Below are positions 1,473 to 63,215 of a DNA stretch of 64,000 nucleotides, piece by piece; position 1 is the stretch's first letter; each line of letters begins with the position of its first letter. Below the pieces are notes generated by a model. That model had not been told where the DNA came from, did not search any database, and was given only the letters and a program-made list of their open reading frames with translations. A program made the translations under genes and the position numbers. Source of the stretch: Eledone cirrhosa. Its lineage: Eukaryota. The stretch spans positions 126,418,001 through 126,482,000 of the forward strand of contig OZ024742.1 of NCBI GenBank assembly GCA_964016885.1, in the 5' to 3' direction.

Positions 1473-4400
1473 TTTTGTAAATAAACATGTTTAGAAATAT
1501 AGAGAATCTTGTGCAGAAAAATAGCTATGAACACAACTTAGAAAATCAGACAGAAAAAGTCGCCAAGCATATTTTACAGAGAATCAAACTCAGTAACAGC
1601 TGCTGGCTACTTTTTCTATCTATAGAGGTATTTTACCCAATTTTCTAAGCTGTGTTTTCATAACCATTTTCCTGCATTCAAGATTTTCTACATTTCTCAA
1701 CATATATGTAATTTATATATATATATAAAATACAAATATAGTAACAAAAAAAAAAATAATAAAACATTCCACATTTTAATGATAATTATCAGTAATAATA
1801 ATAATATTAGTAATAATAATAATTGTAATAACCAAAATATTCATGATAATGATGACATATATATATATATATTTGAGCTTTTTCCTGATTTTGTCTTGTA
1901 TAATGTTTTCACTGATATAATTACTATATTTCCACTCCAATTTTAAACAAGTGGAAATATGTGTTTGGATGTGAATTTCACCTTTCTCTTTCACATTTAT
2001 ATTATTATTATTATTTGTTATGATTATTATTAATAATAATTATAATAATGATAACGAGGTTTCTCTTTTTATCATAATCAGCATCATCATCAAAATCATC
2101 AATGGTATATGATGTTATCTGCATCATAAAGATAGATTCTCATTATCATCATTTAGATTTATTTTGATTTCTGCAAATATGATTGTGTATGTGTGTGTGT
2201 GTAGGTGTGCATGTGTATGTGTGTGTGTAGGTGTGCATGTGTATGTGTGTGTGTATGGAATAGCTGTCATAAGTGATAAAATATTTAAAGATCTTGATTT
2301 TAATTTTTTTTTTTAATTTTTCATTTTACACAGGAAATCACTAAAAGAACAACAATTGACTGAGGAGATGTCTTGCCCCCAGAGAAATGAAGAGATAGAA
2401 GGTAGGGTGGGATACTCCATGACAGAGAGAGAGAGAGAGAGAGAGAAGAATGTGTGGAAGAGAAAGAGTGAGAGAAGTGAATTGGAAAGAGATTGGTTAG
2501 GAAGATAAAAACAACAATAATACTGAGGCAGAAAACTTAAAATTTAGTTGGTTATATCAAGCTTAGTACATGACTGGTACTTTATTTTATTGACCCCACC
2601 CCCTCCTCGTTCCTGGAGAGATGAAAGGGAAAATTGACTTAACTGGAATTTGAACTCAGAACATAAAGAACTAAGTAAATACAAGATATTTTATCCAACT
2701 CTTTAACAATTCTTCTAATCCACTGCTCTAACTCTACTCTTAATAATAATAATAATAATAGTTTTAAGGTATTTGAATTGATGCCCAGAATATAACTGGT
2801 ATGTATCATATCAGACCCAGAGGAATAAGTACTGAAGTTGAATTTGGTGGGATTGAAACAGAGCATGAAGAAAAAAAAACTAATGCAAGGTTTTTAGACC
2901 TCACTTTGCCATTTCTGAGCACTTTTTAATACATGTTTTATAAATAAGCAAGAAGCCCCAGATGTTCAAAGGTAATGAGAATTTGTGGAATTCATGCATT
3001 TCACAATATTACAGAAAGTCTTGTTATGCTGTTAAATCAATATTGATGACATCAACAACTTTCCTTTCACTAAAGTAAGAATATCAGCAACAACATTGTA
3101 TGGGTTTGCATGTGTGTGTTTTATGTATTCATGTCTAATAATGCACATGTTGCAAACATGGCCACAATATATTTCATGGTATGAATTTGTAAACATGCAG
3201 TATAATCTATATACACACATTTACAGATGTCGACATGTAAATATATTTCTGTATGTAAGAAAAGTGTATGTGAGAATGTACACAGGAAAAGGTTTAAAAA
3301 CAAAAGATAGTAGATAGAAGGCTGCCAAGAGTATTTGAGGGAGTTACATATATAAGAGATATAGTCTCAATGGAGAGCCTGTCTGTTTCAACTTGTTCTC
3401 AAGTCTCATCAGAGAGTTGAGAACATCAAGTTCAAATGGACAGTCTCTTCATTAGGATTATACCTTTTCACAGAAACTCAACTTGCATTGAGTACTACTC
3501 TGATCTGTGATCGTCTGTCTTCAAACACTTCACTATATATATATATATTTTGATGTGTATATGAAAACATATAAACATATATAATATGTTTATATACAAT
3601 AATCCTATGGGTAGCCTCTCTGCCAAAGAAAAATGTCTTTGTAACAAAAACATTTTTTATTCTCTATTTCCCTCTGAATATATATAGTCACTATTTCAAA
3701 TAAATTGAGATTATCTCCCCCTTTCTTTGAGAGTTGCTAACGATTGCAAGTAAGATATTGTTTTTCTTCAACTAAGAGGCAAATTTCAACTAATTGAAAA
3801 TGTCTATTGTGTTCAGCATTCAGTACATGGCCCTTAAATTATACATAAAATTAATAAAATATGATAAAATGTTACCTCTTCATATACCTTTACTTTCCTA
3901 TCTCAAATTCATGGGTTGAGAAACTCTACCCCCCAAACAGGTAAAGTAACAGTCATAGAAAAATGGAGATAGATAAATGATTATTTTTTATTTAATAGCT
4001 TAATAAGAAGAGTATTAAAGACTCTTTTCAGGGCATCTGAGAATGGTAGATGGAAGGCAAAAATGTTATATTCAGACCAAAGACCTAATCTAGATGCTTG
4101 CAATAGAGTGAGCTGTTAAAAGCAGCCAAGGGCCAAATGATGAGAGAGAGGGAGAGACAGTGTGTATATGTTTAAGAAATAGGTCAATTTTTTCAACAGG
4201 ATACTCTCTCATTCTATTTCTCCCACCCTCATACCATGTAAACATGTTTTATTTGGTAACTATTAACATCTCAATGATTTAGCAGAATTCAAATGTTTAT
4301 TAGCATCTTTACTAATAGATAGATTAATACACATTTTCATAATCTAAGTAGAGACTTTAATGTGATGTAGTCACAGTGGTGTTTTGTACTTTCTAAAAAT

Positions 4401-5655
4401 ATCTTGTTAATGCAGTTGCATGCAATACAGGAGGTTAAGAGCTAATGTTTTTGTTTGTTGTTGTTGTCCTTATATCTTGCTTCCATTTGTATCTTATTAT
4501 TGTGACCATTATTATGTACTATCTTTTTTTATATTGTATCAGAACCGTTTCAATAATGGCTTTTCTCACATTGCATATAAAATTGTGATTATTTCCTCTC
4601 ATTTTTGTTATTATTATTACTATTATTATTATGTACTTTCTAAAAAAAAAAACAAAAAATAGGGTTTCTTTTATTATTTATCTATTTTATTATCCACTTA
4701 CATAATATTTGTTTGAAAATAAAAAAAAACGAAACATTTTGATAATAATGATAAAAAAAAAAGGTATTTTTTATTCATACATACATATATTTAATTGTTT
4801 CATAAGCTTTTTTTATTTTGTAAGGTTAGGGGGAGTTAATTCAATTCTTTTATTATTATTATATTATTATTAATAATAATCTTTTCTCCTTCAGGTCAAC
4901 AGAGTAGTCACAACCAAAAAAATTGCACAGCGTTCAGAAAAAAAGCTAACTGCAAACACTGCAGCTTTCAATACAATATTTGACACATTGTAGCTGCAGT
5001 CTATGGCTTTAAAACTGAACAAAATTCTTTTAAAAAAAAACAAAAACAAAAAAAAAACATAATTTTTTAAAAAGATTGTTTAAAAAAAGTGGCTGCAGAA
5101 AGGGAGACAATCAGAAAACAATGCGTTTCAAAAGGTGAGATAGGAAGAAAAAAAAAAATATATGTATATATATATATATATTGGAAAAAGAGGGGATCAG
5201 GGGAGGGGGTGTCCTTAAAGAATGTTTAAATCTGCACATTGTTTTTATAATTTTTTCCAATTTCTTTCTATTCTTTAAAAAAATAAAGAACAGAAAAAAA
5301 ACAACAACCCTAAACACCTATTTATATGTATGTGTGTGTATGTGTGTATATATATATATATATATCTATATCTATATATACATATAGTAAGATGTGCGCT
5401 AGCAGCCGAAGTGTATGATAGTTATGTCTGTATAAATACAGAGTGTGTAACCGAGACTGCAGCAATGTGTATAAATATATACACATATCTAATATGTAGG
5501 CGTGTAAACATGCCAGAAAATACAAATTTCCCTGTAAATTGAAAAAAAAAAAAAATTATAAACAACTTTAATCAATTTTTGGATCTTATTAAAACCTCAT
5601 CTGAAGACGTGTTTATCATCCAATCAACCTCAAGGAAACATGTATTTGATGGGTA

Positions 5656-5732
<77 letters not shown>

Positions 5733-6139
5733 AGTGCATGTATGTATATTCGATAAATGGATAGTTAGCTGCTTTGCTTTGTAGAGCATGTAATATTATG
5801 AACATGACTAAGTATTAAATTGTTTTCACAAATTAATTTTTCCAGTTTGTGGCTCGTTTATTCAAATTGCTTGTTTGTTAATTAGTAAGTTGTGCTTTTT
5901 AATTAACTTTATCTTAACATATATTGATTGTATGTAAATAATTGCCACCAAATTTTTTATTTCAATTTTATATTGGACATTATTTACACACATACATATT
6001 AGGTAGAAAGAAAGTTAGACACAATTGTTTGATGAGAATGTTTAACCAACCAAACAACAAAATCTTCGATAAGCTGGAAAAACTTGATGGAAAACTTTCT
6101 AAAAATTATATCATAGTCATGTTTTAATACATTTTATAC

Positions 6140-6179
<40 letters not shown>

Positions 6180-6543
6180 ATATATATGCATTCACATATA
6201 TAAGTTAAACACACACAAATATATATATATACATACACACACACACACTCATACACTGATACATACACATAGATAGATAGGTAGATATAATAATTATAAT
6301 AATAATATTAATTATAATTGTTAATGATTTTTCATTCCTTTAACCATTATTTTTTAAATTTTTTATTTATCATTTCATTTATTTATTTTTCTTTCTTGTC
6401 TCATCTTTGTTTCTAGTTTTTTATTTATTTATTCATTGATTGACATTTTTCTGTTTTTGTTTTGTTCTTTTTTTTTCCATTTCTCTCTTCTCTTCTTCTC
6501 TGTCATTTAATGCAAATGATGGTAAAGTGAGTTGTCAGCCAGC

Positions 6544-6672
6544 TCACATGTTGGTGTCTAGTATCGAATGCTTGGAGTTTCGTACATCCTCCGTCTCGTA
6601 GGCGTTGTACGTGGCGAATCTAGAATCCTTCAAGTGTGTGTAATTGGCACTGACCGCAATCAAAAAGTGAAT
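6544..6672 (-). CDS. M6: M6/PLP family last coding exon
   Basis: ttctttcag|ATT CAC...ATG TGA; IHFLIAVSANYTHLKDSRFATYNAYETEDVRNSKHSILDTNM*, comparable to PLP 'LTFMIAATYNFAVLK'. The 3'UTR continues toward lower coordinates; its end was not determined. Confidence 0.88.
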   Translation of the reverse strand: MHFLIAVSANYTHLKDSRFATYNAYETEDVRNSKHSILDTNM

Positions 6673-7289
6673 CTGAAAGAATAGAAATGAAAATATAACA
6701 ACAAAAATAATAATTGTATCAGAGGAACAGTAAATAAACAAGTTTAAAATGCCCTGTACATGCTGTGTATCAGGGTGGTGCTCCTATGACTCCAGGTACA
6801 ATGCGAGAAAATCTGGGTATAAGAGGAATTATCATATATACTTGTATATAAGCCAAGAAATTGGTGACTCCCACCAAAAAAAAGGTTGATTGTAAATCAG
6901 GGTGGACTTATATACGAAGTTAATATTTTGCTGATTTTAACCAACCTCAAAATACTTTGTAAATGAGGTGCTAAAATATTTTCACTTTAGAGGTGAATGT
7001 TACACCGATTTCATTTTGGAAGTGAAATTCATATTTCCTATAGTTTCATATGTTTTGAATGAGTATGGCCTTGAAAACAGTCGGAAATTGGAGTTGTGAA
7101 ACAAAACTATACTCTAGATGATACTTAAAACATTTTAAATAACAAAATATTAAAACTTCATAAATATATTCTCCTCTCATGAGAATTTCAAAACTGAACT
7201 AATCTAAACAATGTGTTGATTACTTGCTTCAACTTATAAACAGTGTTTGGATTTTTGAATATATCTCAGACATAAGATATGTGTATCTA

Positions 7290-7615
7290 TTTGAGTATCT
7301 ACGGTAGCTGAAGTGTGCAAAAAAGATTATTGCACTGATATTTACATGTAGACTTTATTGAATGACGATCATTGGGTGAAGAAGTGCCAGGTGATCAAAA
7401 TGGAAGGAAATATGGTAGAAGTAGATTGAGGAAAATCTGGAAAGAAGTGATGAAAACTGACCTCAAGATACTGAACCTCACAAAGAAGATGTCAAAAGAA
7501 AGAGATGAGTGGGGGGATGCTGTACCGAAGAGAACTCATATAACCACCCATGGAAGGATAGAAAAGTAGGAGGGATGCTGTACTGGAGAAGACTCATTTA
7601 ACCCATGGAAGCATC
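7290..7615 (+). mobile_element. RTE LINE 3' end fragment
   Basis: GRSRLRKIWKEVMKTDLKILNL...ERDEW matches the RTE C-terminal 'RGRPRKTW...DL...DR..W' pattern. Confidence 0.65.
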
Positions 7616-8845
7616 TTTTTTGACAGGTTCTTCCTGAGGCCAGCCCATACCTTATTTTAAATATGATATGATAGTTAGGACCATGCACTCCTGTCAACAG
7701 AGCATTTAGATAGATATTACACTACATTTCAAGGCTTAACATATTCCTTGGCAGACCCATCCCATGCTTAATCAGGTATATGAAAAAATACCAGAAGTAA
7801 ATACACGATTGATTCAATGTCATACAAGGTTTGCTGGTCACTGCTTTTATGCAAAAGATGAGATGGTTCAGACCTCCTGTTGTTGGAGATCTCTGCCAGA
7901 AAGCTCAGTTACCAGGATACCATAGAAAGAGACACTAGAATTGATTGATAAGGATGACCTAAAAACATTGATGGGAAATAGAGACTGTTGGCGTGAAGTT
8001 GTGTTTGCCGTCTCACCTAAGGGTGATGGATAAGGATGCTGTACTGGAGAGAACTCATTTAACCTATGGAAATATGGAAAAGTGGGAGGGCTGCTGTACT
8101 GAAGAGGACTCTTAATCCATGAAAGGATGGAAAAGTGAACATACAAATGATGATGATAATGTTTTCTAATTTATGCACAAGGCCAGCAATTTGGGGTCAG
8201 GGAAAGGGAAAAGTCAATTAAATTGACTCATGTACTTTATTTTATCAATGCTAGAAGGATGAAAAGCAAAGTTGACCTCAAGGGTCGGAACAAATATTGC
8301 TAAGCATTGACTGCCTATCAATATCCTTTAAATGGTTTCTAATTTAGGAACAAGGCCAGCAATTAGAGGGAAAGGGAAAGCAGGTTATATTACTTGACTT
8401 ATATTTTATTTTATTCAGCTTAAAAGGATAAAAGACAATGTTGACCTCAGCAGGATTTAAACTGAGAATGTAAAGAGCCAGAAATGATGATGATAATAAA
8501 AATAATATATATATCATCATCATCACATCCACTTTTCCATGCTTGTATGGGTTTTATATGTATCATCATCATTACTGTTTTACGTCCATTTTTCCACATT
8601 AGCATGGCTTAGATGGGTTGTCCTGTTGTGGCCAATGCCAGGTCAGGTGACGATGTCTTGCTCATACAGAACTGATTTTGGCTTGATTTCTACAGCTGGA
8701 TGCCCTTCCTAACACCAACCTTATTTACAGTGAGTACTGGGTGCTTTTTTACCATGGCGCCTACACGACCACTTTACATTGGGAAGGGGGAGGGGAGCAT
8801 ACTGTCCATATGCTCCAGCTTGTATCTGTGGGAAGTTGGGTCTAC

Positions 8846-8921
<76 letters not shown>

Positions 8922-9112
8922 CATATATACACACACAATTGTTTCTGCATTTGGCACTAGGCCAGCAATTTGAAGAGAGGGGAAAGTCAATTAGATCAGC
9001 CTGGTGCATTACTGTTAGTTTATTTTATAAGGATGAAAGGCAAAGTTAACTTTGGCAGGATTTGAGCTCAGAATGTAAAGAGCCAGATATGATAATAATT
9101 ATAAAAAATAAT

Positions 9113-9640: not shown

Positions 9641-9649
9641 CATTTTTCT

Positions 9650-10587: not shown

Positions 10588-10988
10588 CTGAAAATTGAAT
10601 AAAAATGGATAAAGGAACAATATAATAATTCATAGCTGAAAGGGTCCCCTTTCTTTTTATTATACAAAAAAATATTCAAATATATAGAAGTGTAAACAAC
10701 TGATCGATTTATGTAGCAGAGGGAAAATTTTAAATGTGATAAATGTGCGGCCCAATGTGAATGACCATAATAATAGTCAATCATAGTTAAGAAAATCAGG
10801 TAAAATACTCCTGGAGATAGATAAAATCAGACAGATGTTTTTGAGTTCCTCTGTTCACTTTCGTCTCATTGTCTCATGATCTGATTTTCTCAACTTTTAT
10901 AGTGATCAACTATTATTGTGGTCATTCATGTTAGGATGCATGTATCCCAAATTTAAATAAATGATTTTTGAAAGAAAACTTTGCTTAC

Positions 10989-15050: not shown

Positions 15051-15055
15051 CTTAC

Positions 15056-15680: not shown

Positions 15681-15866
15681 GTGGATTGGCAGTTTCGGTA
15701 GAGGGTCGGACGCCATGCTTTCCAGCATAGTTACGTCCCTTTACGATCCGAGTTCAAATCCCGCCGAGGTTGACTTTGCCTTTCATCCTTACGGGGGTCG
15801 ATAAAATAAAGTACCAGTAATGCACTGGGTAATTGCTGGCCTTGTGCCTAAAGTAGAAACAATTAT
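15681..15866 (+). mobile_element. tRNA-derived SINE family A (representative copy)
   Basis: A-box-like TGGCAGTTTCGGTAG and B-box GAGTTCAAATCCC, followed by ctttgcctttcatccttacggggtcgataaaataaagtaccag...ccttgtgcctaaagtagaaac. Other copies: + strand ~15356, 34790, 43407, 43682, 59370; - strand ~270, 2570, 8160, 8335, 8937, 12420, 47706, 47933, 54301, 54461, 54651, 60620. Confidence 0.85.
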
Positions 15867-16022
15867 AGAAATTACTTCTTCATTACTAGAACTATTTCAC
15901 ATGTGCAGTAAATCATCAGGAAAGTAAATCAGGAAATTCCTGATGATTTCTTATGAATGAAACAGTTCTAGTCCAGTAGAAATCATTTCTATAATAATAA
16001 CAATAACATATATGTATATATG

Positions 16023-16237: not shown

Positions 16238-16748
16238 CACATAAACAAAACCGTTATTGCTCCAGCCAGTTCATTCACCATCGATAACTACCTGAAATAT
16301 ACATACACATATATACACTATATATAGATGTATATGCAAACAAGCAAGTACATGATGCATGTACAAATATATGTGTATGTAATGGATATTAAATCTAGAT
16401 GATGAATGTATGCATGTATATATATTATATCATATATATATATATATATATATATATAACAAAGGAATTGTGGTAAGGAACCAGATGGACCATAACGCAC
16501 CAGAGTACTCAATACTTAGTCCAGAAATAGCTGTCGAAACGGCTTGAGCTCTGCCGTCGGGGTCATACTTTTTCCTATATATATATAAGTATGGGGCGCG
16601 CGCGCGTGCGTGCGTGCAAAATGAATATGTATGAATATATATTATATCATATATATATATATATATATATATCATATATATATTATATCATATATATATA
16701 TATATATATATAAGTATGGTGTGTGTGTAAAATGAATGTTAAATGCTG

Positions 16749-16782
<34 letters not shown>

Positions 16783-16976
16783 AATGAGTAGGACCCCGAC
16801 GGCTGAGCTCAAGCCGTTTCGACGGCTAATTCTGGACTCTACTACCCTAAGTATTGAGTACTTTGAGTACTTTGGTGCGTTATGGTCCATCTGGTTCCTT
16901 GCCACAACTCCTTCGTTATATATGTGTATATATATATATGTTCAGCATTTAACATTCATTTTACACACACACCATA

Positions 16977-17452: not shown

Positions 17453-17747
17453 AAATGAAGTGAGTAAAAGCTAAGGAATTCAGCTAAACAGTGAAAGTAG
17501 GTTAGAGAACAACTGTGTGTGTCTTCCAATTTCCAGTAAATTCCTTGGAACAGTTTCATTGGAGATCACAATCAATATCTTACCTTCTCCCCCCTCCTCC
17601 TCCCCACGATTGTTCTACATCCATCCCTCTCCCTCTTTCTCTCTCTCCCTCTCCTTCTCCTTCTCTCTATCTTGGTCTCTGTCTTGCAACCTTCTTATCT
17701 CAACTCTCACTAACTCATCTTACCATTTCTCCTCTCCTCTTTCTAAC

Positions 17748-18952
17748 ACTTCTTACAATCTCTCTAACTTCTTACAGTCTCTCTAACTTCTTACAGTCTC
17801 TCTAACTTCTTACAATCTCTCTACCTTCTTCCCATCAATCTCTCTCTAACTCTTCTTACAATCTCTAACTTCTTACCATCTCTCTCTAACTTCTTACCAT
17901 CTCTCTCTAACTTCTTACCATCTCTCTCTAACTTCTTACCATCTCTCTCTAACTTCTTACCATCTCTCTCTAACTTCTTACCATCTCTCTCTAACTTCTT
18001 ACCATCTCTCTCTAACTCTTCTTACCATCTCTCTCTAACTCTTCTTACAATCTCTCTCTAACTCTTCTTACAATCTCTCTCTAACTCTTCTTACAATCTC
18101 TCTCTAACTCTTCTTACAATCTCTCTAACTCTTCTTACAATCTCTCTACCTTCTTCCCATCAATCTCTCTCTAACTCTTCTTACAATCTCTAACTTCTTA
18201 CCATCTCTCTCTAACGCTTCTTACAATCTCTCTAGCTTCTTACAATCTCTCTCTCTAACTCTTCTTACAATCTCTAGCTTCTTACAATCTCTCTCTAACT
18301 CTTCTTACAATCTCTCTAACTTCTTCCCATCTCTCTCTCTCTAACTCTACTTACAATCTCTCTAACTTCTTCCCATCTCTCTCTCTCTTCTTACAATCTC
18401 TCTAGCTTCTTACAATCTCTCTAGCTTCTTACAATCTCTCTAGCTTCTTACAATCTCTCTAGCTTCTTACAATCTCTCTAGCTTCTTACAATCTCTCTAG
18501 CTTCTTACAATCTCTCTAGCTTCTTACAATCTCTCTAGCTTCTTACAATCTCTCTAGCTTCTTACAATCTCTCTAGCTTCTTACAATCTCTCTAGCTTCT
18601 TACAATCTCTCTAGCTTCTTACAATCTCTCTAGCTTCTTACAATCTCTCTAGCTTCTTACAATCTCTCTAGCTTCTTACAATCTCTCTAGCTTCTTACAA
18701 ACTCTCTCTCTCTAACACTTCTTACCATCTCTCTCTCTAACTCTTCTTACCATCTCTCTCTCTAACTCTTCTTACCATCTCTCTCTCTAACTCTTCTTAC
18801 CATCTCTCTCTCTAACTCTTCTTACCATCTCTCTCTCTAACTCTTCTTACCATCTCTCTCTCTAACTCTTCTTACCATCTCTCTCTCTCTCTAACTTCTT
18901 CCCATCTCTCTCTCTCTAACTCTTCTTACCATCTCTCTCTCTCTAACTCTTA
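17748..18952. repeat. ~19-25-bp minisatellite (CTCTCTARCTTCTTACMAT)
   Basis: Direct reading; homogeneous 19-bp ctctctagcttcttacaat run at ~18398-18700. Confidence 0.95.
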
Positions 18953-19126
18953 TTACCACCACCTTTCTCTCACTGTTCATCTCATCTCACAATATATCTC
19001 AACACTCCCTCTCCTCTGCTCTATCCCCTTTCACTATTTCTATCACTTTTCTTTGCCTCAATTTGCTCTAACTTTCTTTCACTCCTTCTCACACTCTTAT
19101 CCTCCTCTGCTCATTCATATTTCTCT

Positions 19127-30838: not shown

Positions 30839-31492
30839 ATACCTGTCTCATTCACTATCTCTACACTTACCTCACTACACTTACCTCACTACACTTACAC
30901 CTATCAATCAATCCCAATAATATTCATTCTCTCCATTCTTATACTTTCTTTCCTTTTCTAACACTACACTTTCTCTTTTCTTCCTCCATTCCCATGTACA
31001 CCCTCTCCTTCCCACCACTTCTTTTGTATAGTCCTTCTCCCTCTTTTATTATTTCATTTCCATCCCTCTCTTTCTCCCCCTCTCTCTCAATCATTTCCAT
31101 CCCTCTCTTTCACCCCCTCCTCTCTCTATCATTTCTATCTCTCTCTTACCCCCCGCCCCCCCTCTTCTTTCTCTTTCATTTCATCTTTTTCTCCCTTACA
31201 TGTATTTTTTCCTTCAATATTTTGAAATGAATATCTTCAATACAACACACTTTCTAAATATCACATGCATACACACAGACACAAAACGTGTGCATATAAA
31301 CACAAATGCACATACAAGCATAGATGCACACATACACGCACACAAACATGTATACACCTCTAATTGAAATTGATATTTAATCAATCCAGCATATGAATAA
31401 AGTTACTACACTTTACATTTTTTGAGTGGAGTTCTTTATTATTTTTAAAATTATACACCACACACATTATAATATATACATATATATATATA

Positions 31493-36238: not shown

Positions 36239-37222
36239 TAGACAGAGAGATAGAGCGATAGACAGAGAGATAGAGCGATAGAGAGAGAGAGCGATAGACA
36301 GAGAGATATATTTCTTTATTAGCCACAGGGGCACAAAAGAAGGGGACAAATACAAAGGGGGAAGTTTACATACAATAAAAACGTGTAAAATGTTATCACA
36401 GATGGAATTTAAAAGTTAGTCGATTTTCCCCAATAGAGGGAAACAGTTTATATGGGTAACACATACCCCCGAAAAAAAATGTGCAACCCTCATCTCCAGG
36501 AGTACGAAGAGCTTGTACTCCTTTCCTCTCCTCCTCATTTTCCTCAACCTACAGGCTGATATAGAGAGAAGGCCCATTCACTCGGGCCATTCTCGCCACT
36601 TTCACCCACCTTTCATAGAGCGATAGACAGAGAGATAGAGTGATAGACAGAGAGATAGAGCGATAGACAGAGAGATAGAGTGATAGACAGAGAGATAGAC
36701 AGAGAGATAGAGTGATAGACAGAGAGATAGACAGAGAGATAGAGCGATAGACAGAGAGATAGAGCGATAGAGAGAGAGAGCGAGCTAGAGAGAGCGATAG
36801 AGAGAGAGAGAGCGAGCTAGAGAGAGCGATAGAGAGAGAGAGAGCGAGCTAGAGAGAGCGCTAGAGAGAGAGAGAGCGCGAGCTAGAGAGAGCGATAGAG
36901 CGAGCTAGAGAGAGCGATAGAGCGAGCTAGAGAGAGCGATAGAGCGAGCTAGAGAGAGCGATAGAGCGAGCTAGAGAGAGCGATAGAGAGAGAGCGATAG
37001 AGAGAGAGCGATAGAGAGAGAGCGATAGAGAGAGAGCGATAGAGAGAGAGAGCGATAGAGCGAGCTAGAGAGAGCGATAGAGCGAGCTAGAGAGAGCGAT
37101 AGAGAGAGAGCGATAGAGTGAGAGAGCGATAGAGTGAGAGAGCGATAGAGTGAGAGAGCGATAGAGTGAGAGAGCGATAGAGTGATAGAGTGAGAGAGAT
37201 AGAGTGAGAGAGTGAGAGATAG

Positions 37223-43893: not shown

Positions 43894-46800
43894 AGCTGCC
43901 TACTACTACAGGGGAAAAAGAGAGATGTTCTAGAAAGATGAAAATACAGAGGTATCAAGTTGATGGTACAAGTTATAAAAGAAACAGGAGAAAGAAATAG
44001 AGATGAGATGTAGTTCAGGCCTGTAACAGGAAGAAATACCACCAATACACTTAGTGAGATGGAGGAGTAGGTAGCAAGTAAAGGCTCATGAAATGAATTC
44101 TTTCATATAGTTGGAAAACTACTGCCATAGTCAGAACAGAGAAAAGACTTATTACATTTGCAGGCAAATAAGGAATTTTGAAAGGATAGGTTGTATGAAG
44201 TGCAATGTTGCATAGTTGTCGAAATGAGCTCTGAATGCAGGGGATAAATATTAAATCAATGTTTGTATGGGAGAGTTACAATATATTGTATAGCCCAAGT
44301 AATTATTTTATCATTCTCAAAGATGAAAAACAAGGTTAACCTTGTGGGATTAGAACCTAAGATATAAGGGGAGAAGGCTAAACAATGTAAACTATTTAGT
44401 TTGGGTCTCTCACAGAACTGTCAATTTCTGCAATGTGAGTATAAAACAGTGTTTAAAGAAAAATATACATATTTTTTGAAGTTGTACTTGTTAGACCAAT
44501 GGCTTGATCTGAGACTGTATTTTGAAACTGAAAGAACTAAAAAGTAATATCAGTTTCTGTGTTCTTAACCCTTTCATTTTTTTTTTTTTATTCCCATAAC
44601 TCCTGGGAAAGTCATGGGATGTCATATTGACATACTGCGATTCTAGAGCATATTTTAAAACCTGGTGGAGCCCATCTCCTTTCCAGGTTTAAATACAGCA
44701 GATTTCTTCCAGAAAAGGATAGTGAGAGAATGGAAATGAAAAAGAGATATAGAGGAAGTGAAAAAGAGATATAGAGGAAGAATCAACCCCAGTACTAGAC
44801 TGGTAATTTTTTTTAACAACCTTGAGTTAAAGTTGACCTCAAACCCTTTCATTACCATATTTCTAATGAAAGACACTGCCAATGATTTTCAAACATTTTG
44901 AAAGTAATCATGAATTTTGAAGAACTTTGTAATATAATTAACTTCCTCATTTATATAAAAAACTATTGTAATTTTATTTAAGAACCTCTAATACATGGTG
45001 TAATGTGGTTGGTGATATGAAGAACATCTAGCTGTAGAAGGCTTGCTAAACAAAGGGTTGGGAGGACCTTTCAGTTGTGACAAAAACATAAGAATTTCTC
45101 TAAAACATGATAAAATGCACTCAGTAAAATGTGGAATCTTATGTAAGCAAGATGCAAACACTCAGCCTGTATGGGAGCTCAGTAGTCCTTCTCCAGTACT
45201 GACTGTCTTTGAAGACACATCCAACTCTTACTAGTGGGGAAAGTGGATATTAAATGATAATGATGAACCTTCGTTATGTTCCAAACACCAGCTTAATAGC
45301 TGAAAGTTCTTAAATAAAATTACAATAGAATTTTAGATAAATATAAACACTTTAAAATATACAATATTATATAATACAACAAGGAGCATTTTTAGGTGGT
45401 TTGGTGTCAAAAGGGTTAAATGGCTTAAAGGGGTTTTCCATGAAGAACATTTTTCTCTTTAATCCAATGTAAAGTTTTAAGAAAATGGAACTAGCCAATT
45501 AAGATTACTACTAGTATATAACTGGTACTTGTGAGCCGATATGACCACTGGACTTGGTATAACAACCAAATTTCAAAATAATACAAACTGTCTAAAAAAA
45601 AAAAAAGGAAGGATACATTGCTCAAAGTACCCCCAGATACATAATTTGAATATAAAAGATGAGATGGTCATATTTGGTTGGGATACTTGACGTACAATTG
45701 TAATGTCAGTTTTATTACTGGACAGGCTGCTGCATTGAGTTCTTGAGCAAAACACTTTATTTCACATTGCTCCAGTTCACACAGCTGAGATGAATACCAG
45801 TAGTAGTTGGAGAGTTAATCCTGCAATAGACAAGTGCCTTATCCAGGGAGAGTCTTGTTCTCTCAGCTGCTTAATGCAAAAAAAACAAACAAAAAACCAT
45901 AAATAATCTTTTGCCTAATGAGCATTCGGCTTAGAGCAGACTTTTGACAATAGGTTTTTTTTTTTTTTTTATCAAGGCTGATCTCAAGTTAAATGATACA
46001 TAGACGAAACCCCTACAATCTACACAAAGAATGGCCAAATCATCCATATTTTATTGAGAAATACAGTTCTAGATATATTATTGCACTCACAGTTCATGTT
46101 TTTCTTGTAAGCATTGACTTGATGTTCAAAGAGGGCATCATCTGCCCTGGATTAACCATTAAGTAAAATAAGTATGTGCTTAGGACCTTATGTAAAGAGG
46201 GACCCTATAGAAGTCTTTTCCCCCTAGTATAGTGCAAAGCAGATTTTTCCATTTACTGTATATGGAAGCACTATTATCTTTTCAGTGTTTAGGGCCTCTA
46301 AATGTATTAAACTAACCCTGTGCACCATTAACAATCAAGGGAGAGAGGAGGGGAGACTGCAATGATCATAGGGACTTCCCCTTTTCTGTTGACATGAAAT
46401 AAAAGGTCAGCTTTGATAAAGAAGACCTTTGATCAAAGGCATTTTAAAACCATGACCATCTAACCTTTAGTATGTTTTACACATATATTATCTAATGTGT
46501 GATTTTTTTTTAGGAATATAATATTTAACACGCGATACTAAACTGCCCCTGGTTTTCTGCTATAAAACCACTGGTTTTAAAATATGTATTGCAGTTAATA
46601 TAAAGAATGGTGTGCTCTTCCACGGAGATGCTATATAATAGCTCATAAAACAGGGTGAAGACCCTTAAAAGTGTCCTCGAGATAGCTAAGTATACACAAT
46701 GCTTCTTTGTTTGCATACAGTGTTTGTTGATGTCTGAAAGCTGTAATTCAGTTATCTAATTTAAGGGGGAGAGACGGGAGGGAGAGAGACGGAGATATTT

Positions 46801-50499: not shown

Positions 50500-53345
50500 G
50501 TAAACGATATTGCGTGTCATCCCTTGAGGAGTGTAAGCAAAATGTCCATTCCTGCTCCCTACGCGGGAACAGGCAACATAAAGTTGGCCATGGGGGAGAA
50601 GCATGGCTCCCCCAAATGGATGCCCGCCACCGACAATGTTTGCCCTTGTGACTTGTTAATGGACATGGCAAAACATGGTCTCACCGGAAATCGAACGGGA
50701 TATCTGACGCCGAGGGGAAAGGTTCATCCTTGGAATAAAAACATTCTCCCCTCTCCCGCACCCCGTTACAATGGTGGCCTTAATCAAGTGGGGCGTCAGT
50801 GACTTGACGACCATGCGAGTACCGTTACACTGCTTTGGTGGACGCAAGTTCCTTATTAGCATAATGGGACAGCCAACTCTAAGCTTAAAAATGCGAGGTG
50901 GGAGCCCTGGGGGCTCAAGGGAATTTAATAACTCAACCGAATAATTAACGATATCGTCGGAGTCTGACGTCCGGTCAATAGATTTGAAGATGTGTTCTTT
51001 ACCGGGAATTTTCTCAATCAGCTGCTCGTTAATAAAATTAACCATGGTATTTTTCGGAGAGCAAGGATGGCTCTTTCGCTGAGCCATTCGAGGTTTTTAA
51101 AGTTAGATGAGACATTAGGAAAAACTGCTTCCCAAAGGTCAGAAGGGCTGCTCACAATGTTGCACAGGGAGTGGATTGCTATGTCGCCCTTGTCATGCGC
51201 AGGGACCTTGCCCTCACCAAGTGCTAAAATATTCTGAGCAAATGCTGCAGACATGTCACCATGCAAATGAGCACGCATATTTGTGCTCAGGTACAAACTC
51301 TTCACATGGAGCCACAACATGGACGACTTAAGACAGGCACGTACGTACTTCATCAGCTCTTGTCCCTTTGGGGATGACAGGCAGCGTTTGCCGAAAATCC
51401 CGATAGCAGAAGGGTTACGCCACCCATAGGAGACGTAGAATCCCCAATGTCTTTCAGGGTACTGTCCAATGCCTCAAGGGCACCCTTGTGCATTCATCCC
51501 AAACAATGAGGCAACATTTTTTGAGAACCAGAGCTTCGTGTGAACTCTTGCTGATATTGCATGTTGGTGTCTTAGTTTTTACTAAATTCAAAGGGAGTTT
51601 AAATGTTGAATGTGCTGTCCTGCCTCCCGGCAGCAAAGTAGCAGCGATCCCGGACGATGCAACGGCCAACGCAATTTTTTCTCTCCTGAAGAATCTTAGC
51701 GAGAATCAATTTCGTTACATAAGTTTTTCCGGTACCCCCAGGAGCATCGAGAAAGTAAATACCCCCAGTCTGATTTTGAACTGCGTCAATGATAGTTAAA
51801 TAGGCCAACCTTTGGTCCGACAGGAGTTTGGGCTCATTTTCCTCTAAGTATTGGGAAAGAGATTCGATGTCATATGCTGTTTCCCGCAACACATCCGGGG
51901 CCAACGTGTTAGCTTCCTCTCTGACGGTTGACGGCAAGCCATACGTCGCCAACTCACTCCCATCCATGTCGAGGAGGGCGTCCTCGATATCAATGAGTGC
52001 TCTGTTGTAGATAATGTCCCGGTAACCAACTTCCACTGAAGTATACTGCAGATGAGCCAGGCGCAGGAAGTCCTCAGACATGAAGTCTCTGTACTTGACC
52101 CATAAAGATTTGGGATCGCCCAATTCACACTTTTGAAGCAAAATAGCAAAGAGTTCCCGTAGACCTTTACTTGATTTCAACAAAGCACACTTTCCTAAAG
52201 TGGAATCCCATTGCGAATCAACTAAAAGACCACGCTTAAAGCAGGCTTCCCGGTACGTATCACATATTTCTCCATCAACAGTTTTGATGTCCTGAAAACT
52301 TTGTGAGCCTACAACTTTATGCAGAAGAAGGCGGAGATGAAAGCACTCATGCTGACTTGGGGGTACAGTGTAAACCCTTCCAAGACAGCTGTCAAATTTT
52401 ACACCAGGATGTTTTTCAGCAGCCTGACCTGACTTTCGACCATATAAAGTAGGATGGAACCTGGGAGTACACAATTGTTTGCGCAAATGTATCGAACTGG
52501 CAAAGTTTGAAGAAACCCGTCAGAGTGGTCTCTTTCGGATCGGCGGCCAACTTGGCGGCGGTTTGGTCCGTAAAGTAAACCCTTTGCCCATTTTCCAAAT
52601 GTACCTCAAGCTGTACGATAGCGAGGTGACGTTGGTGTAGGGGTAAACCAAATAGGTGCCAAAAAGCTTCATTGCTACTGATGTACGGCCCCGCCAAGTA
52701 TTGTGACCTCGTCCCTGCTATTTTCAGCTTGAAATGCGAACATTGCGGCATCAGAGCCCTTATTTACATATTTGCATATTTTATCGACTTGACGGAGTTG
52801 CAAAACTCAACGTTGATGTGGGCATTGAACATCTTCAAGAGAAGCGGGCAGTAAGGGACCACCCATCTATTGTCGACTTGACCTCCCGTTACTGTTGTGG
52901 TGAAGCCACCGTTCTCGGGCCGTCTCCCCTTGTACAGGGGGTACCCGTCGCCACCAGTCTGAGTCTGGTCAACAAATTTCTGGGGGTATCCCTTACTGCA
53001 CGACCTCCGCTTTCAGATACGTGTGATGCTCATTAGGACCTGACGCACACGGACCATGAATCATGTTACCTTTGACGATGTCATGTAATTCCTTGTCAGT
53101 TGCTGGGTTAGGGATTTCAGCCGAAATGAAGCTGTCTATGGCATTTGAATTGATTTTATCAGCTAACCAAATCAAAATGTGAGCATGTGGCAGCCCTCAT
53201 TTTTGCCATTCGACGGTGAACATGTTATATTTTACAGCTCCAAATACCTGACCTTTTTGATTAAAGCCATGAGTTTAGCCAGTTTCAGTCTGAACACTCT
53301 GGCAATGAGGTCATGTCTGTTCGAATAATTTTGCCCAGGAAAAAG
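50500..53345 (-). pseudogene. Helitron RepHel (HUH replicase + PIF1-type helicase) pseudogene
   Basis: HUH motif VEWQK*GLPHAHILIWL (~53215-53165, Arg codon now TGA) and AHINVEFCNSVKSIKY/CKYVNKGSD (frameshifted). Helicase motifs FLDAPGGTGKT, AVASSGIAATLLPGGRTAHS, IVWDEC, GDFRQTLPVIP, LSTNMR, PIMLIRNL..QCNGTR, FAMSINKSQGQT, HGQLYVACSRV are spread over several frames. Confidence 0.93.
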
Positions 53346-55338: not shown

Positions 55339-55391
<53 letters not shown>

Positions 55392-56439
55392 CCCGGGTTC
55401 AATCGGGGGTAACCACAGTAAGGTACTCATGATGATTTCCTTCGAATGAAACAGTTCTAGTCCTGTAAAAGTCATTTCTATAATAAAATGAATATACGTA
55501 TATTCTTCTAACATCATTGAATATCTTTTTTGACATTGGTCGCCTCTCGATTTACACTGGGATCTCTCTCTCACACACACATATACACACGTTGTTGGTC
55601 TTCCGTGGCTTGCTCTTTTGAATTGCAGCTACAACTCATTTTGTCAGCTAAGTGGATTAGAGCAACATGAAGTGTCTTGCTCAAGGATATAATGCATTGC
55701 CAAGAATCGACCTCCTGTCATTGCACTCGTGAACTTAACATGTACACAAGCGGTGCTTGAACTTTTGAAATGCTGAGAGTATGAGTTTCATAGAAAATGT
55801 ATGAAAACGGATGTAGTTGGTTACTATAAATAACTTTGAAAATCGGGTAAAACCTCTAATAGACGAAAAAAGACGAAAAAAGACGAAAAAAGACGATTAC
55901 AACCACCTGGTCGACAATGCTGGTGCCTATGTAAGATTTTAAAACTAAACTTCTACCATTATACTGGTCAAAATATAATTTGTTTTATGAGAATCGACTA
56001 ATAATTAATAAAGTTATTAAAATTTTCAACAGGAAGTTTCTATCCAGCCACTATGTATATATGGCTGCTGGAAACTTCTTTTGGCAGAGACGTTGGAGCG
56101 GAGGACAAAATACCTGACGGTATTTGTTCCAGTTCTTTAGCTTATGAGATCAAATCCCGTTGTAAGTTATTTTGGTGGTAAACTTCATCCATGGTCCGGT
56201 TTATCACCAACATCTGGTCCTTTTGTGATTTAAGTGGAGACTATTCTGTTAAAGCATTCGGACCAGGTTTCCAAACTTGTGGGTACCATCATCCTTCCGC
56301 ACCTTTAGAAACGGAAGCCCCGATAAGAGTCATAGGTACTGCTCTTCCCTCTCTGAGTAAAAAATTAAAAGAAAACCGACTTCCTCCAATTGAGCCAGTT
56401 TTTGGTTTTGAGCTATAAACGTTTTCCTTCACACCTCCC

Positions 56440-56676: not shown

Positions 56677-57399
56677 TATGACCGCTTCATAAATTTATGA
56701 TGGTGAAAGTGACAGAAGAGACTGACTGTTCAACTGAGTAAATAAATACCACATATATTTGTTTGAACACATTAATGTCTTCACAATTTCTCTGACGAGC
56801 ATACTCTTCGCCGATATAAAGGGATCGGGAAGAAATCACAACTAAATAAGGTACTCAATACATTTGTAGAGAAGATACATATTTCATATAGACATTCCTG
56901 ATGATTTCATACGAATGAAACAGTTCTGTAGAAGTCATTTCTATATTACACACACACACACAAGTAAATTACACACACACACACCTAGTAAGGTTTGTGC
57001 AAAACTGAGGAAATATTTTATGAACAGGGATTAATCAATCATCGAACCTTCTCCACTTTCAGCCTTTATTAAAACTTCTGCAAAACACACATCCATACAA
57101 ACCAGAGTATAGTGTGTGTGTTTATATATAAATATATATCTACAGATTTCTGTACACAAACACACACACGTGTGTATGTGTGTGAATCTTCAACCTATTC
57201 GTATTTATCGTTGTTGTGGTATAAGTATGGCCACTGATTTCGGTCACTTTTCTTGGTGTCACCCTTTAACTTTGTTTATTCTGGACGATAATGTATTAAC
57301 CTCTTGCTCCATTGAGTGCTTTGTAACCGCCACAAACAATTCGATTAGTATCTGGTATATTATAGCTACAACTTCCTCTCTCTCTTTCATTATATATAT

Positions 57400-57446
<47 letters not shown>

Positions 57447-58685: not shown

Positions 58686-59196
58686 ACCGCCACCATCCTT
58701 CAAAAACGAAGGAGAGGCGGTTTTCCTTTGTGTGATAGCTATGGCGAAAGAGGTTGTATGGTGGACAAGGTTGAAAGGGCTGAGGTCAGACACCTTTCTC
58801 TCCGGCCAACAACTGATTCTTTTTTTCAAATACCACTTTGGAAGAAGAATCAGAATGGAGAGAGAGGTGCTGTACCCCAGCAAGTTTTATGAAAGGTGGG
58901 TGAAAGTGGCGAGAATGGCCCGAGTGAATGGGCCTTCTCTCTATATCAGCCTGTAGGTTGAGGAAAAGGAGGAGGAGAAGAAAGGAGTACAAGCTCTTCG
59001 TACTCCTGGAGATGAGGGTTGCACATTTTTTTTCGGGTGTATGTGTTACCCATATAAACTGTCTCCCTCTATTGGGGAAAATCGACTAACTTTTAAATTC
59101 CATCTGTGATAACATTTTACACGTTTTTATTGTATGTAAACTTCCCCCTTTGTATTTGTCCCCTTCTTTTGTGCCCCTGTGGCTAATAAAGAAATT
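58686..59196 (+). mobile_element. 5'-truncated L1/Tx1-like LINE (ORF2 C-terminus + 3'UTR)
   Basis: Peptide AMAKEVVWWTRLK...FFKYHFGRRIRMEREVL...FYERW resembles Tx1-type ORF2 C-termini; ends in gtggctAATAAAgaaat. A near-identical copy lies at 36311-36616. The clade assignment is by eye. Confidence 0.7.
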
Positions 59197-59482
59197 TAAA
59201 AAAAATATATATATATATATATTATATTAAGAGTCACTACTGTCCGATTGTCACACGAACGCTAAAATCTAACAAATTCGTTCTAAAATATTTTCATTCA
59301 TGCCAAAATTTATGATAATGGTGTATTCTGGCTTTTTCACTCTTTCTAGTCACCGACAATATATAGGTTGCGAATTAGTAGAGTAGTTAACACATCGGAG
59401 AGAATGCTATCTCAGTTCAAATCCTGCCGTAGTCAACTTTACCTTTCATCCTTTCAATGTCAATAAAAAAAGTACCAGTCCA

Positions 59483-59532
<50 letters not shown>

Positions 59533-59680
59533 TTTGAGTATATGTTGGTTGTATACCATCACCTCAGTATGCATATTGGAGCACTCGACGAAGAGGTCAC
59601 GGACTGCCTGAAGAGGTCACAGCCAAACGAAGCCAAATTTTAAACATTTGACTTATTTATTTTATATATATATATATATA

Positions 59681-60123
59681 TACGATATTAAACAATGGAA
59701 ACTACATTTATAAAACCATATTTATTTCATTATATATATTTCAGGGATATCATATTAAAAATATGGTATGCCCTCTTCAGACAAAATACAATATATATAA
59801 ACAGTTTTATAAATAAATTTGACATACCTTAAAATTTTACAACTTCCATTTAAAAAGTTTTTAACAACTTTTTAAATGGAAGTTGTAAAATTTTAAGGTA
59901 TGTCAAATTTATTTATAAAACTGTTTATATATTGTATTTTGTCTGAAGAGGGCATACCATATTTTTAATATGATATTCCTGAAATATATATAATGAAATA
60001 AATATGGTTTTATAAATGTAGTTTCCATTGTTTAATATCGTAAAATACTCCAAAACTTGTTGAGTGCTTTTATATCAGTTATAAAATATTTACTCGTAAC
60101 CCAACAATTTTAAATAAAACTTT

Positions 60124-60126
<3 letters not shown>
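59681..60126 (+). mobile_element. Fold-back element with hammerhead cores
   Basis: Arms 59681-59859 and 59866-60042 are near-perfect; tail with GTTGAGTGC (60059-67); (TA)n flanks. Confidence 0.8.
59936..59999 (+). ncRNA. Type-I hammerhead ribozyme motif (mirror copy on the - strand at ~59722-59787)
   Basis: attttgt-CTGAAGA-ggg..catatt ttt aatatg..cct-GAAA-tatat-ATA^atgaaat. Confidence 0.7.
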
Positions 60127-60163
<37 letters not shown>

Positions 60164-61210: not shown

Positions 61211-61785
61211 GGTATTAGGATTGGTGCTCTGAAATAGCGATGTATACATGAATGTATGTATAGTATATTTGGCAATATACCGTATGTTTAATTAAAAACA
61301 TTTAGAACACCATACGCTATCAGTTTTAAAGTAGTGACTATGTCACTTCTTTTCGGCGAAAGAAGGGAGAGAAGCTCAGTCTGTTTCACGCTGGTTGGCA
61401 TTCATCAGAGCTATCAGTTTTCTTCTAAATGTTTTAAATTAAACATACGGTATATTGCCAAATATACTATACATACATTCATGTATACATCGCTATTTCA
61501 GAGCACCAATCCTAATACCTAATTTTTGCTGGACCGGCAATCGCTCTGTATAATCAGCTCCTGATGATTACTGGAATTCTATAAGAATCCAGCTACTATA
61601 ATTTTCGGCGAAAGCAGGGGAGTACGTGGCTCTGATGAACGCCAACCAGCGTGAAACAGACTCTCAGCTTCTCCTCCTTCTTTCGCCGAAAAGAAGTGAC
61701 TTAGTCACTACTTTAAAACCGATAGCGTATGGTCTTCTAAATGTTTTTAATTAAACATACGGTATATTGCCAAATATACTATACA
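61211..61785. mobile_element. Compound double fold-back element with hammerhead cores
   Basis: 61211-61306 is inverted at 61423-61519, and 61257-61411 is inverted at 61629-61785. Confidence 0.75.
61628..61669 (+). ncRNA. Minimal hammerhead ribozyme motif, possibly mutated in stem III
   Basis: ggct-CTGATGA-acgc caacca gcgt-GAAA-cagact-CTC^agct. An inverted copy at 61373-61411 lacks the cleavage-site TC. Confidence 0.65.
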
Positions 61786-61900
61786 CACACACACACACAC
61801 ACACATATTTATATTAGAAAGTAAGTCCATATAATCATTTGATAAAATATATACAGTATTTCTTCTCCCAATCAGCATAATCAACCACATAAAAAAAATC

Positions 61901-61931
<31 letters not shown>

Positions 61932-62203: not shown

Positions 62204-62244
<41 letters not shown>

Positions 62245-62246
<2 letters not shown>

Positions 62247-62441
62247 GGGTGTTTTAAAAAATTTGATATCATTTGAGATATAAATATCCCAGCAACTAAA
62301 ATCTAAGACAATTAGGCTGTAGAGCACCATAAGATTTATTCTTCAAAATCTGACATAACACTAATTCACAATATATATTTTAATGTGACAACCATGATAT
62401 CAAATTTTGATTTTGAAGAGACCATGTTTTTGAAACACCAT

Positions 62442-62442
<1 letters not shown>
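62245..62442. mobile_element. Tc1/mariner-type MITE
   Basis: TA-TAGGGTGTTTTAAAAA ... TTTTTGAAACACCATG-TA imperfect TIRs with TA flanks. Confidence 0.6.
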
Positions 62443-62489
<47 letters not shown>

Positions 62490-62856
62490 CCTTTTACATA
62501 TTCTCTTGTGTCCATGGTCAGTAGATTTAGCTCTCTATTCCGTTCAGCTGTCTGCTTTGTGTAATAATCTGTGAGTTTTACAACACTATACCGAGTTAAA
62601 ATAATCTTGCAGGAAAAAAAATACTTTCTGTAGATCAACATCTTATCCTGGGTGCAGGGATTAGTCTCAGCTGTTTAACTGATTAACTCTGCAACCGGAA
62701 AACGGAGATAAACTTCAGCTTATGTGTCGTTGTGATGCAGTAAAGAACTATACATTTAGCTTATTTTGAGACACATGATATACGTACATACATATACATT
62801 ATAGACAGATATATACATCAAGCGTACTTCTATTGCGTGTGTGTATATATATATAT

Positions 62857-63215
62857 AGAAAAAAAGATGAAATCGAAAATGCAACTGGAGTCTTATTTAA
62901 AAAAAATATATATATATTTATTTGGTTCCTTTACCGGTTTCGCAGTTCTTCTGCTTTTCAAAAATAGGGTTGAGATGGAGGGTCTGTGGTTTTTCTCACA
63001 TCAGATGTGAGAAAAACCACAGACCCTCCATCTCAACTCTACTTTTGAAAAGCAGAAGAACTGCGAAACCGGTGAAGGAACCAAATAAATATATTTTTTT
63101 TAAAAATAAGACTCCAGTTGCATTTTCGATTTCATCTTTTTTTCTTTATACTTTCACTCGTGTAGGACACCTCGGTTACTTTTCATTTTGTAAAAAAACA
63201 TCACTTTCTAATATA
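62857..63215 (+). mobile_element. Fold-back element (~145-bp arms centred on 63003) plus tail, inserted in (TA)n
   Basis: Direct inverted repeat 62857-63002 / 63004-63145. Confidence 0.8.
62929..62964 (-). ncRNA. Minimal hammerhead motif with U3-A8 variant core
   Basis: Minus strand ttt-TTGAAAA-gcag aagaa ctgc-GAAA-ccg-GTA^aag, inside the 62857-63145 palindrome. Confidence 0.55.

Follow-up and report, generated by a model that had tools for sequence, protein, structure and literature searches.

What are the short inverted repeats that recur beside (TA)n runs in the genome of Eledone cirrhosa, and how are they made? We analyzed a 64,000-nucleotide stretch of contig OZ024742.1 (assembly GCA_964016885.1, positions 126,418,001 to 126,482,000 of the forward strand; hereafter the window), in which a sequence-only reading had listed about ten palindromic loci with hammerhead ribozyme cores. 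Judged by their sequence, six of the families at these loci (C, D, E, F, J and L) are the 3' ends of coding Penelope-like elements (PLEs). We consider it likely that the fold-backs are 5'-truncated insertions of coding PLEs, together with two non-coding passengers, in (TA)n, where both nicked target strands primed on one uncut RNA and the copies ran off at its predicted start.

Each family has a letter that follows the order along the window (A 3341, B 15862, C 16458, D 31493, E 40408, F 40685, G 41193, H 55430, I 56898, J 59681, K 61211, L 62857). Self-comparison of the window showed that B, H and I are a single family, called family I. P and T denote the proximal and the distal fixed 3' end of an element, and the stretch from P to T is called the tail. 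Loci with an L number (e.g. L091) are genome stretches outside the window. The genome sample consisted of 120 evenly spaced 10-kb stretches (1.2 Mb) of the 3.0-Gb assembly, with the small chromosomes represented by 21 stretches only.

Coding partners of the window families

The Penelope-like origin proposed by the sequence-only reading was borne out by coding elements with the same termini in six families, including full-length partners with reverse transcriptase (RT) and GIY-YIG domains, e.g. J in L091 and D in L095. In L091, a stop-free open reading frame (ORF) of 749 aa lies between two J repeats 3.86 kb apart, with an inverted truncated copy upstream, and the arrangement in L092 is alike. 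The best 60 genome matches of this ORF were all full length (91-100%), and 38 of them had no stop. The ORF had no match in Pfam or PDB, and among its Atlas feature matches (0.95-0.98) were clusters in which 18-77% of the members have GIY-YIG and RVT_1. The J protein contains the motifs RWR, DKT, YRDD, VYxC...YVG, CNCRDRYKC, CDLC and CRH, and the D protein contains CNCRNKPDC, CNLC and CLH; these two sets were compared by eye with a section and the supplement alignment of PMC8557442. D showed a repeat-ORF-repeat arrangement in L095, and Hydra-type ORFs lie upstream of E in L237 and of C in L250 and L255. The D, C and E ORFs aligned to the J ORF at 36-56%.

Motifs of J and D, and alignments of the D, C and E ORFs to that of J, support the placement of these four families in the Hydra clade. 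The traits of this clade were present as pseudo-long terminal repeats (pseudo-LTRs) formed by partial tandems, an inverted 5'-truncated copy and a one-sided tail (L091, L092, L095), a hammerhead in the pseudo-LTR, and insertion in (TA)n. The published clade, which includes Hydra-1_Obim from Octopus bimaculoides, likewise has a single RT + GIY-YIG ORF with RWK-like, DKT, CxCX5C, CxxC and CxH motifs and no CCHH, a hammerhead close to the 3' end, (TA)n as its target, partial tandems and a one-sided tail (PMC8557442). The inverted 5'-truncated copy resembles that of Penelope-13_HM (PMC8557442); in the supplement of that paper, the tail hairpin is also visible in the coral element Hydra-2_Amil, and Hydra-1_Obim is listed with (TA)n targets. 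However, the units found here are 3.8-4.4 kb long with 3' untranslated regions of 0.9-1.9 kb, compared to generally <3 kb, and the tails of the Hydra-clade families are 72-91 nt, compared to 30-40 bp for PLEs (PMC8557442). Further differences from the Hydra elements described there are the several distinct families with thousands of candidates each, the hard 5' boundary, and the U3:A8 and A4 ribozyme cores.

Families L and F are assigned to the Neptune type by motifs rather than by a tree. L follows a Neptune-type endonuclease in L096, L098, L099, L080 and L087, and F has an RT thumb and an endonuclease upstream in L205. [quoted passage not shown] L and F share the CX4CxxC linker, the C-terminal GIY-YIG domain and the minimal hammerhead with palindromic helix III with the Neptune-type PLEs in PMC8557442; they have no Hydra tail hairpin.

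The sequence-only reading had described the loci as many independent non-coding subfamilies of different ages. Many families of different ages were borne out, but a non-coding nature fits only the loci at 41193 (G) and 61211 (K). Copies of G (~470 nt) and K (~315 nt; spacing 314 and 316) are tandems of more than one unit with one type I hammerhead per unit, and a linked ORF was absent from 8 G copies and 28 K copies, the single ORF neighboring a K copy being unlinked. G and K thus fall within the description of a retrozyme as a non-coding tandem unit of ~170-470 nt with one type I hammerhead, and they resemble, in sequence, non-LTR retrozymes that would be non-coding passengers. Non-coding tandems and a type I hammerhead are what they have in common with the metazoan non-LTR retrozymes (PMC7229834; bioRxiv 10.64898/2026.07.22.740005), whereas G and K mostly comprise 1-2 units and stand head to head.

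The window is typical of the genome in its density, since the seven window families examined had 140 insertions in the 1.2-Mb sample, or 7.5 per 64 kb. A first look at the whole genome, with 40 candidates scored per family, gave at least 1811 candidates for D, 2133 for J, 597 for L, 2429 for K, 805 for I and 1194 for G.

Two fixed 3' ends and probable paired priming

Every family showed two fixed 3' ends, with P 56-91 nt upstream of T. The two arms of a fold-back nearly always ended one at P and the other at T: this was the case for 45 of 50 fold-backs in the 1.2-Mb sample, with neither P+P nor T+T pairs and five with an unclassified end, and for 86 of 93 (one P+P) in a wider set overlapping that sample. 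Among the 45 P+T fold-backs, 18 had a P arm that reached further 5' than the T arm, 22 had arms whose ends differed by no more than 15 nt, and 5 had a longer T arm. The longer P arms indicate that neither arm was copied from the other and hence that there were two priming events. A self-priming hairpin made from one cDNA is excluded for these 18, in which the tail-less arm outreaches the tail-bearing arm. Of the 18 short T arms, 15 stopped no more than 43 nt from P. Subfamily marks were common to both arms in 18 of 19 C fold-backs, compared to 45% expected.

The junctions between the arms mostly differed from copy to copy, with 15 distinct junctions among 21 in C and differing junctions in D, J and L as well, which argues that the inversion was made at each insertion. 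Some did recur, namely in three L copies that were alike and in three C junctions seen three times each. A miniature inverted-repeat or other fold-back DNA element, which would be copied as one fixed structure with terminal inverted repeats, was rejected, as neither the inner breakpoints nor the junctions are constant, the inverted arm is missing from many copies, and the tail stands at one end only.

A small hairpin, ACTC...TT-GAGT, lies behind P in J, D, C, I and A, and is absent from L and F. In ORF-linked copies of J and D, a twin with a compensatory change (GCTC...TT-GAGC) lies behind T. In the Poseidon element PAc of Anolis, the Penelope enzyme nicks and extends both strands, with two internal starts that bracket the tail on an uncut RNA template (PMC11167929), and the two 3' ends and their pairing found here agree with this. 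The differences are that the start in PAc is an AC-rich loop inside the ORF, and that pairing within one insertion and run-off at the start are not reported in the part of that paper compared.

The insertions may arise as follows. Transcription would start in the 5' pseudo-LTR, and the protein would bind the RNA near the repeat-ORF junction and nick both strands of (TA)n. One nicked end would prime at P and the other at T, with the hairpin behind P and its twin behind T positioning the Hydra-type enzyme. The 5' pseudo-LTR of a single RNA would be the template of both cDNAs, which would extend as far as the RNA 5' end and be joined head to head. The T-primed copy would either stall near P, giving a tail and an inverted arm, or displace the P-primed copy, giving a full palindrome.

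Alternatively, each arm could derive from its own RNA molecule within a dimeric complex of protein and RNA, with priming at P on one molecule and at T on the other; we regard this as rather unlikely. A dimeric structure is predicted for a Penelope protein (PMC11167929), and the 22 fold-backs that copy the same stretch twice in full would need strand displacement on one RNA; T+T cases, which exist among selected loci, would also fit. However, strict P+T pairing on two molecules would need a built-in asymmetry, the short tail-bearing arms often stop near P as if meeting a P-primed duplex, and the concordance of subfamily marks speaks for a single template.

The 5' boundary and the predicted start site

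Where the copies end in the other direction was determined for 243 unselected arms ending at P or T in six families (L, C, I, D, E and J). The starts of 104 arms fell within -3 to +10 of a family-specific point, 21 lay in the 40 nt upstream of it, and 31 lay further upstream. The pile-up comprised 15 of 23 arms in L, 57 of 98 in C, 15 of 30 in I, 3 of 9 in D, 12 of 55 in E and 2 of 28 in J; among query-selected D copies, counted per locus, 18 of 29 started within 12 nt. In each of the six families the nucleotide at this boundary is an A with YYANW as its context, and in L, D, I and C a TATA-like box stands 29-33 nt upstream of this A. Such a TATA and initiator-like A pair occurred at 0.2-0.9% of background positions, and its presence in four of six families would be expected by chance with a probability of ~1e-4, a rough estimate that allows ~seven positions of freedom per family. 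The pile-up thus appears to mark a predicted Pol II start site, consisting of TATA box and initiator, in the pseudo-LTR. The Penelope promoter of D. virilis lies in the pseudo-LTR, upstream of the ribozyme (PMC2377424; PMC4209133).

Only 2 of the 243 arms started at the ribozyme cut site and 207 spanned it, indicating that the templates were uncut; ribozyme-cut RNA as a linear template was rejected on the same count. Because the predicted TATA box lies upstream of their first nucleotide, short copies would lack a promoter, and such stumps would be dead ends.

Paired priming might be the same and the pile-up nevertheless reflect a sequence- or structure-dependent RT stop or an RNA end produced by processing, for example at a splice acceptor, an explanation that we consider improbable. 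The boundaries of L, I, C and E contain YAG like a splice acceptor, those of I and E lie at helix I, where the D. virilis intron ends (PMC4209133), and the reference copies of J and E have no TATA box, although an initiator-like motif is present. Yet the A of AG is often kept at the junctions, the short copies have no joined upstream exon, and the D and J boundaries are without AG. Moreover, the boundaries of D, J and L lie 5' of the ribozyme helices rather than at the 3' entry, and the TATA box stands at -29 to -33 in four families.

Besides YAG in four families and the TATA-less J and E, several observations weigh against run-off at a start site after paired priming. The pile-up in E is weak, the positions of the boundary A were chosen, within a few bases, after the pile-up had been seen, and the 5' ends were taken from BLAST edges, which are blurred by microhomology. 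Nine other families, with few copies and poor references, gave one loose pile-up without a TATA box at -30. Query-selected loci included T+T fold-backs (three in D, one in L), window locus B shows no tail, and the concordance of the arms could also result from gene conversion or from one active source locus. Coding partners were not found for families I and A: a same-strand match was seen in 0 of 61 I copies, and A had two genome matches, one of which is the window locus itself. Two inverted endonuclease fragments abut long I copies and differ from each other; both families have the Hydra tail hairpin, and I also has the P and T ends. Finally, three full-length elements have 5' repeats that extend 439-969 nt upstream of T, past the boundary, for which run-off alone is not a sufficient explanation.

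For these full-length elements, one route past the RNA 5' end is needed. If the T hairpin stood only before the ORF, long tail-bearing copies would likewise have to pass the RNA 5' end. The routes would be a jump to the 3' repeat, circular RNA (as in PMC4209133) or read-through transcripts. A more general version, which we put forward tentatively as a possibility, is that PLEs resemble retroviruses in one respect: they would start reverse transcription near the RNA 5' end, make a strong-stop cDNA ending at the start site and jump to the identical stretch of the 3' pseudo-LTR, restoring the repeat with its promoter. The fold-backs would then be pairs of strong-stop cDNAs whose jump failed, and ~4e5 hammerhead motifs would be what they have left.

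Retroviral strong-stop DNA is primed near the RNA 5' end and runs off at the start site, and in LINE-1 twin priming two nicks prime one RNA and produce an inversion. The scheme proposed here differs from both in that the primer would be target DNA, used at two fixed positions inside the element, and in that complete overlap of the arms is frequent.

Two side observations concern the 5' region. At L007:571-1463, a piece of the D arm that measures 84-92 nt and starts at the 5' boundary occurs in nine tandem copies, inverted relative to the main copy; they may reflect repeated re-priming at the RNA end. In other hammerhead families (L237, L242, L279 and L080, L094, L209), the motif ATGCAAAT (an octamer) or GCGCATGCGC stands upstream of the core, and both may be promoter elements.

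Hammerhead motifs and the loci of the window

Hammerhead cores were above chance. In the window, a strict type I descriptor found four motifs, one in each arm of D and of J, compared to a mean of 0.15 and a maximum of 2 in 100 dinucleotide shuffles, and 140 motifs in the genome sample, compared to 0, 3, 6, 10 and 5 in five shuffles. Strict hammerheads occur ~1 per 7-9 kb, and the proposed frequency of roughly one per 6 kb was borne out at about one per 6-9 kb. The weighted genome-wide estimate was 4.1e5 motifs (bootstrap 2.5-6.4e5), in which the two arms of one fold-back count separately and the small chromosomes rest on 21 stretches. A TA run lay within 250 nt downstream of 126 of the 140 hammerheads, compared to 26% of control positions. 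Neighboring motifs of the same family were divergent in 17 cases and convergent in 2.

Loop III was 2 nt or shorter in 103 of the 140, in agreement with type I hammerheads with palindromic helix III as described by the sequence-only reading. Covariation was seen at the core pair 3:8, with 115 C3:G8 and 14 U3:A8 compared to seven uncompensated pairs (one C3-A8 and six U3-G8); family C has the U3:A8 variant. The core of a type I hammerhead is therefore present in the genome sample, and self-cleavage is its predicted activity. In an Rfam scan of the window, hammerheads were not matched at E<=5, and the matches obtained were look-alikes from hairpins and microsatellites. In predicted folds, helix III was absent from D and J monomers and formed in C and I monomers. 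The dimer-type helix III, the extra base after A9 and the U3:A8 variant are shared with the minimal hammerheads of metazoan PLEs (PMC4209133).

Two families had unusual cores or starts. Eleven cores carried A4, nine of them with the helix III of family E. The family E core, CAGAAGA with A at position 4, is family-wide (L074, L197, L205, L207, L219, L222, L235, L237), and its motif has three sound helices with a monomer-type helix III; PMC3088659 mentions the variant U4C at this core position and, in the part compared, not U4A. In C at L201:5905-6005, the predicted start site lies within hammerhead loop II, and the full motif folds as a three-way junction; the 5' repeat of a C transcript would therefore hold half a ribozyme.

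Self-comparison of the window gave nine fold-backs among the listed loci (3354-3468, 15862-15995, 16436-16939, 31488-31816, 40412-40496, 41192-41436, 59681-60042, 61211-61789 and 62852-63150), mostly abutting (TA)n, with self-complementarities of 70-98% and one-sided tails of 56-91 nt. The features were as follows.

3341-3533: family A, an old fold-back with 73% similarity between its arms; minus-strand hammerhead, degenerate, core 3412
3476-3493: family A tail with Hydra-type hairpin; no coding partner found
15862-15997: family I (copy B), an old fold-back, 70%; two cores, both decayed, 15940 (+) and 15919 (-); no visible tail in either arm
16458-16578: family C (Hydra), insertion 1; short tail-bearing arm (-) and tail-less arm (+), the latter beginning within hammerhead loop II
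16778-16917: family C (Hydra), insertion 2; different subfamily, orientation opposite to insertion 1
31488-31908: fold-back of family D (Hydra); arm without tail 31488-31647 (-), arm with tail 31645-31908 (+); predicted start site at the center, tail 91 nt
31703-31769 (+): D intact type I hammerhead; self-complementary helix III, dimer type
31535-31601 (-): D mirror hammerhead
31822-31848 (+): D tail hairpin ACTC...TT-GAGT, directly behind the proximal end
40412-40578: family E (Hydra) fold-back; short arms, 81-nt tail; copy without the CAGAAGA core of the family
40600-40734 (-): family F (Neptune type), one arm only, with tail; G8 of the core mutated
40756-41438 (-): family G, more than one unit of a ~470-nt non-coding tandem repeat, retrozyme-like; mutated core at 41000 (-), inverted piece 41303-41438
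55385-55488: family I (copy H); tail (-) and tail-less arm (+); first core base lost
56820-56948: family I; tail (-) and tail-less arm (+) starting at helix I; core 56898
59530-59662: further hammerhead-bearing family, fragment between TA runs; an addition to the earlier list
59681-60126: fold-back of family J (Hydra); arm without tail 59681-59863 (-), arm with tail 59862-60126 (+); tail 87 nt
59935-60000 (+): J intact type I hammerhead; palindromic helix III
59723-59788 (-): J mirror hammerhead
60047-60065 (+): J tail hairpin, behind the proximal end
61211-61789: family K, head-to-head copies, more than one unit each, of a ~315-nt non-coding unit, retrozyme-like; cores 61632 (+) and 61408 (-), helix III damaged in both
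62852-63211: family L (Neptune type) fold-back; U3:A8 core, predicted start site at the center, tail ~62 nt

One architecture had been proposed for the roughly ten loci. The fold-backs, the tails and (TA)n agree with this, but several loci are partial, single-arm or coreless. Similarly, CTGANGA...GAAA, said to be usual in the arms, was seen at 6 of the 11 listed loci and was strictly intact in both arms only at 31493 and 59681. The supposed palindrome at 16458-16920 is two separate C insertions, both without the 5' half of the core, and the copy at 40408 begins downstream of the family E core. A single arm with a mutated core occupies 40685-40725, and 41193-41434 contains no core, that of the unit being the mutated one at 41000. 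At 55430 and 56898, a tail is joined to an inverted arm with almost no overlap, so that neither is a palindrome, and the core at 62857 is UUGAAAA rather than CTGANGA.

The inverted arm had been thought to lock the ribozyme and so protect a host pre-mRNA from cleavage. This did not find support: an antisense core lay within 1.5 kb upstream of only 46 of the 140 intact ribozymes, leaving two thirds without a partner, and most of them are of the minimal dimer type, which cleaves poorly alone (PMC4209133). A host exon was not found in the window, where none of 105 candidate ORFs, picked from 240 on the basis of GC, matched Pfam, a result compatible with an intron. The related view that independent non-coding fold-backs spread as units, with the inverted arm kept as such a lock, is in our judgment very improbable. 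G and K are indeed non-coding tandem units, some junctions recur, and perfect hairpins would sequester the core; the predicted energies are -257, -263 and -223 kcal/mol for D, J and L. On the other hand, six families have coding partners, most junctions differ, and many fold-backs, including most of those of C, have lost half the core. We infer that the hairpin lock is a by-product of the insertion geometry. A supply of double-stranded RNA from the hairpins to ADAR or Dicer, as the sequence-only reading also suggested, would be physically possible.

Opposite-strand hammerhead pairs (100-700 bp apart, ascribed to truncated PLEs in PMC4209133), U3:A8 cores, inverted ends, tails and octopus Hydra elements are already published in the parts of the literature compared, and active Penelope families are listed for Octopus vulgaris in a repeat annotation from 2026, with ribozymes unmentioned in the part compared. 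In the openly accessible literature (subscription papers unsearched), we found no report on octopus-type fold-backs, PLE twin priming, 5' ends at a start site or TATA-initiator boundary, or a genome-wide count. The identity of the elements is ordinary, Hydra elements with hammerheads in (TA)n being known from an octopus, and what gives the data their value is the statistics of the ends. A very large number of insertions marked by three fixed landmarks (P, T and the 5' boundary), together with at least 38 stop-free J ORFs, makes the copying model testable. Published counts are 2,000-9,000 hammerheads per genome (PMC4209133) and 126,247 in axolotl (PMC7229834), compared to ~4e5 here with another descriptor. 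If the estimate holds, this would be the densest hammerhead set in the papers compared, and a large potential source of perfect double-stranded RNA of 150-180 bp.

Stacking of insertions was seen in L018, L007, L091, L104 and L152, where different families lie in the same TA tracts and new TA borders each insertion. In the window, the L fold-back is nested in an older inverted pair of 76 nt (89%; 62779-62854 and 63216-63291). Older degenerate inverted repeats without a hammerhead core lie at 1487-1703, 10729-10957 and 44949-45342, and a 311-nt pair with 98% complementarity is found 22 kb apart at 36307-36617 and 58888-59198. The long ORFs of the window were rejected as genes, being satellite artifacts and a broken Helitron. 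A satellite of ~13 kb (17738-30862) with related 19-, 40- and 50-nt units produces very long artifact ORFs, and 50656-52519 (-) is a broken Helitron-type Rep/Pif1 helicase (Pfam PIF1, Pif1_2B).

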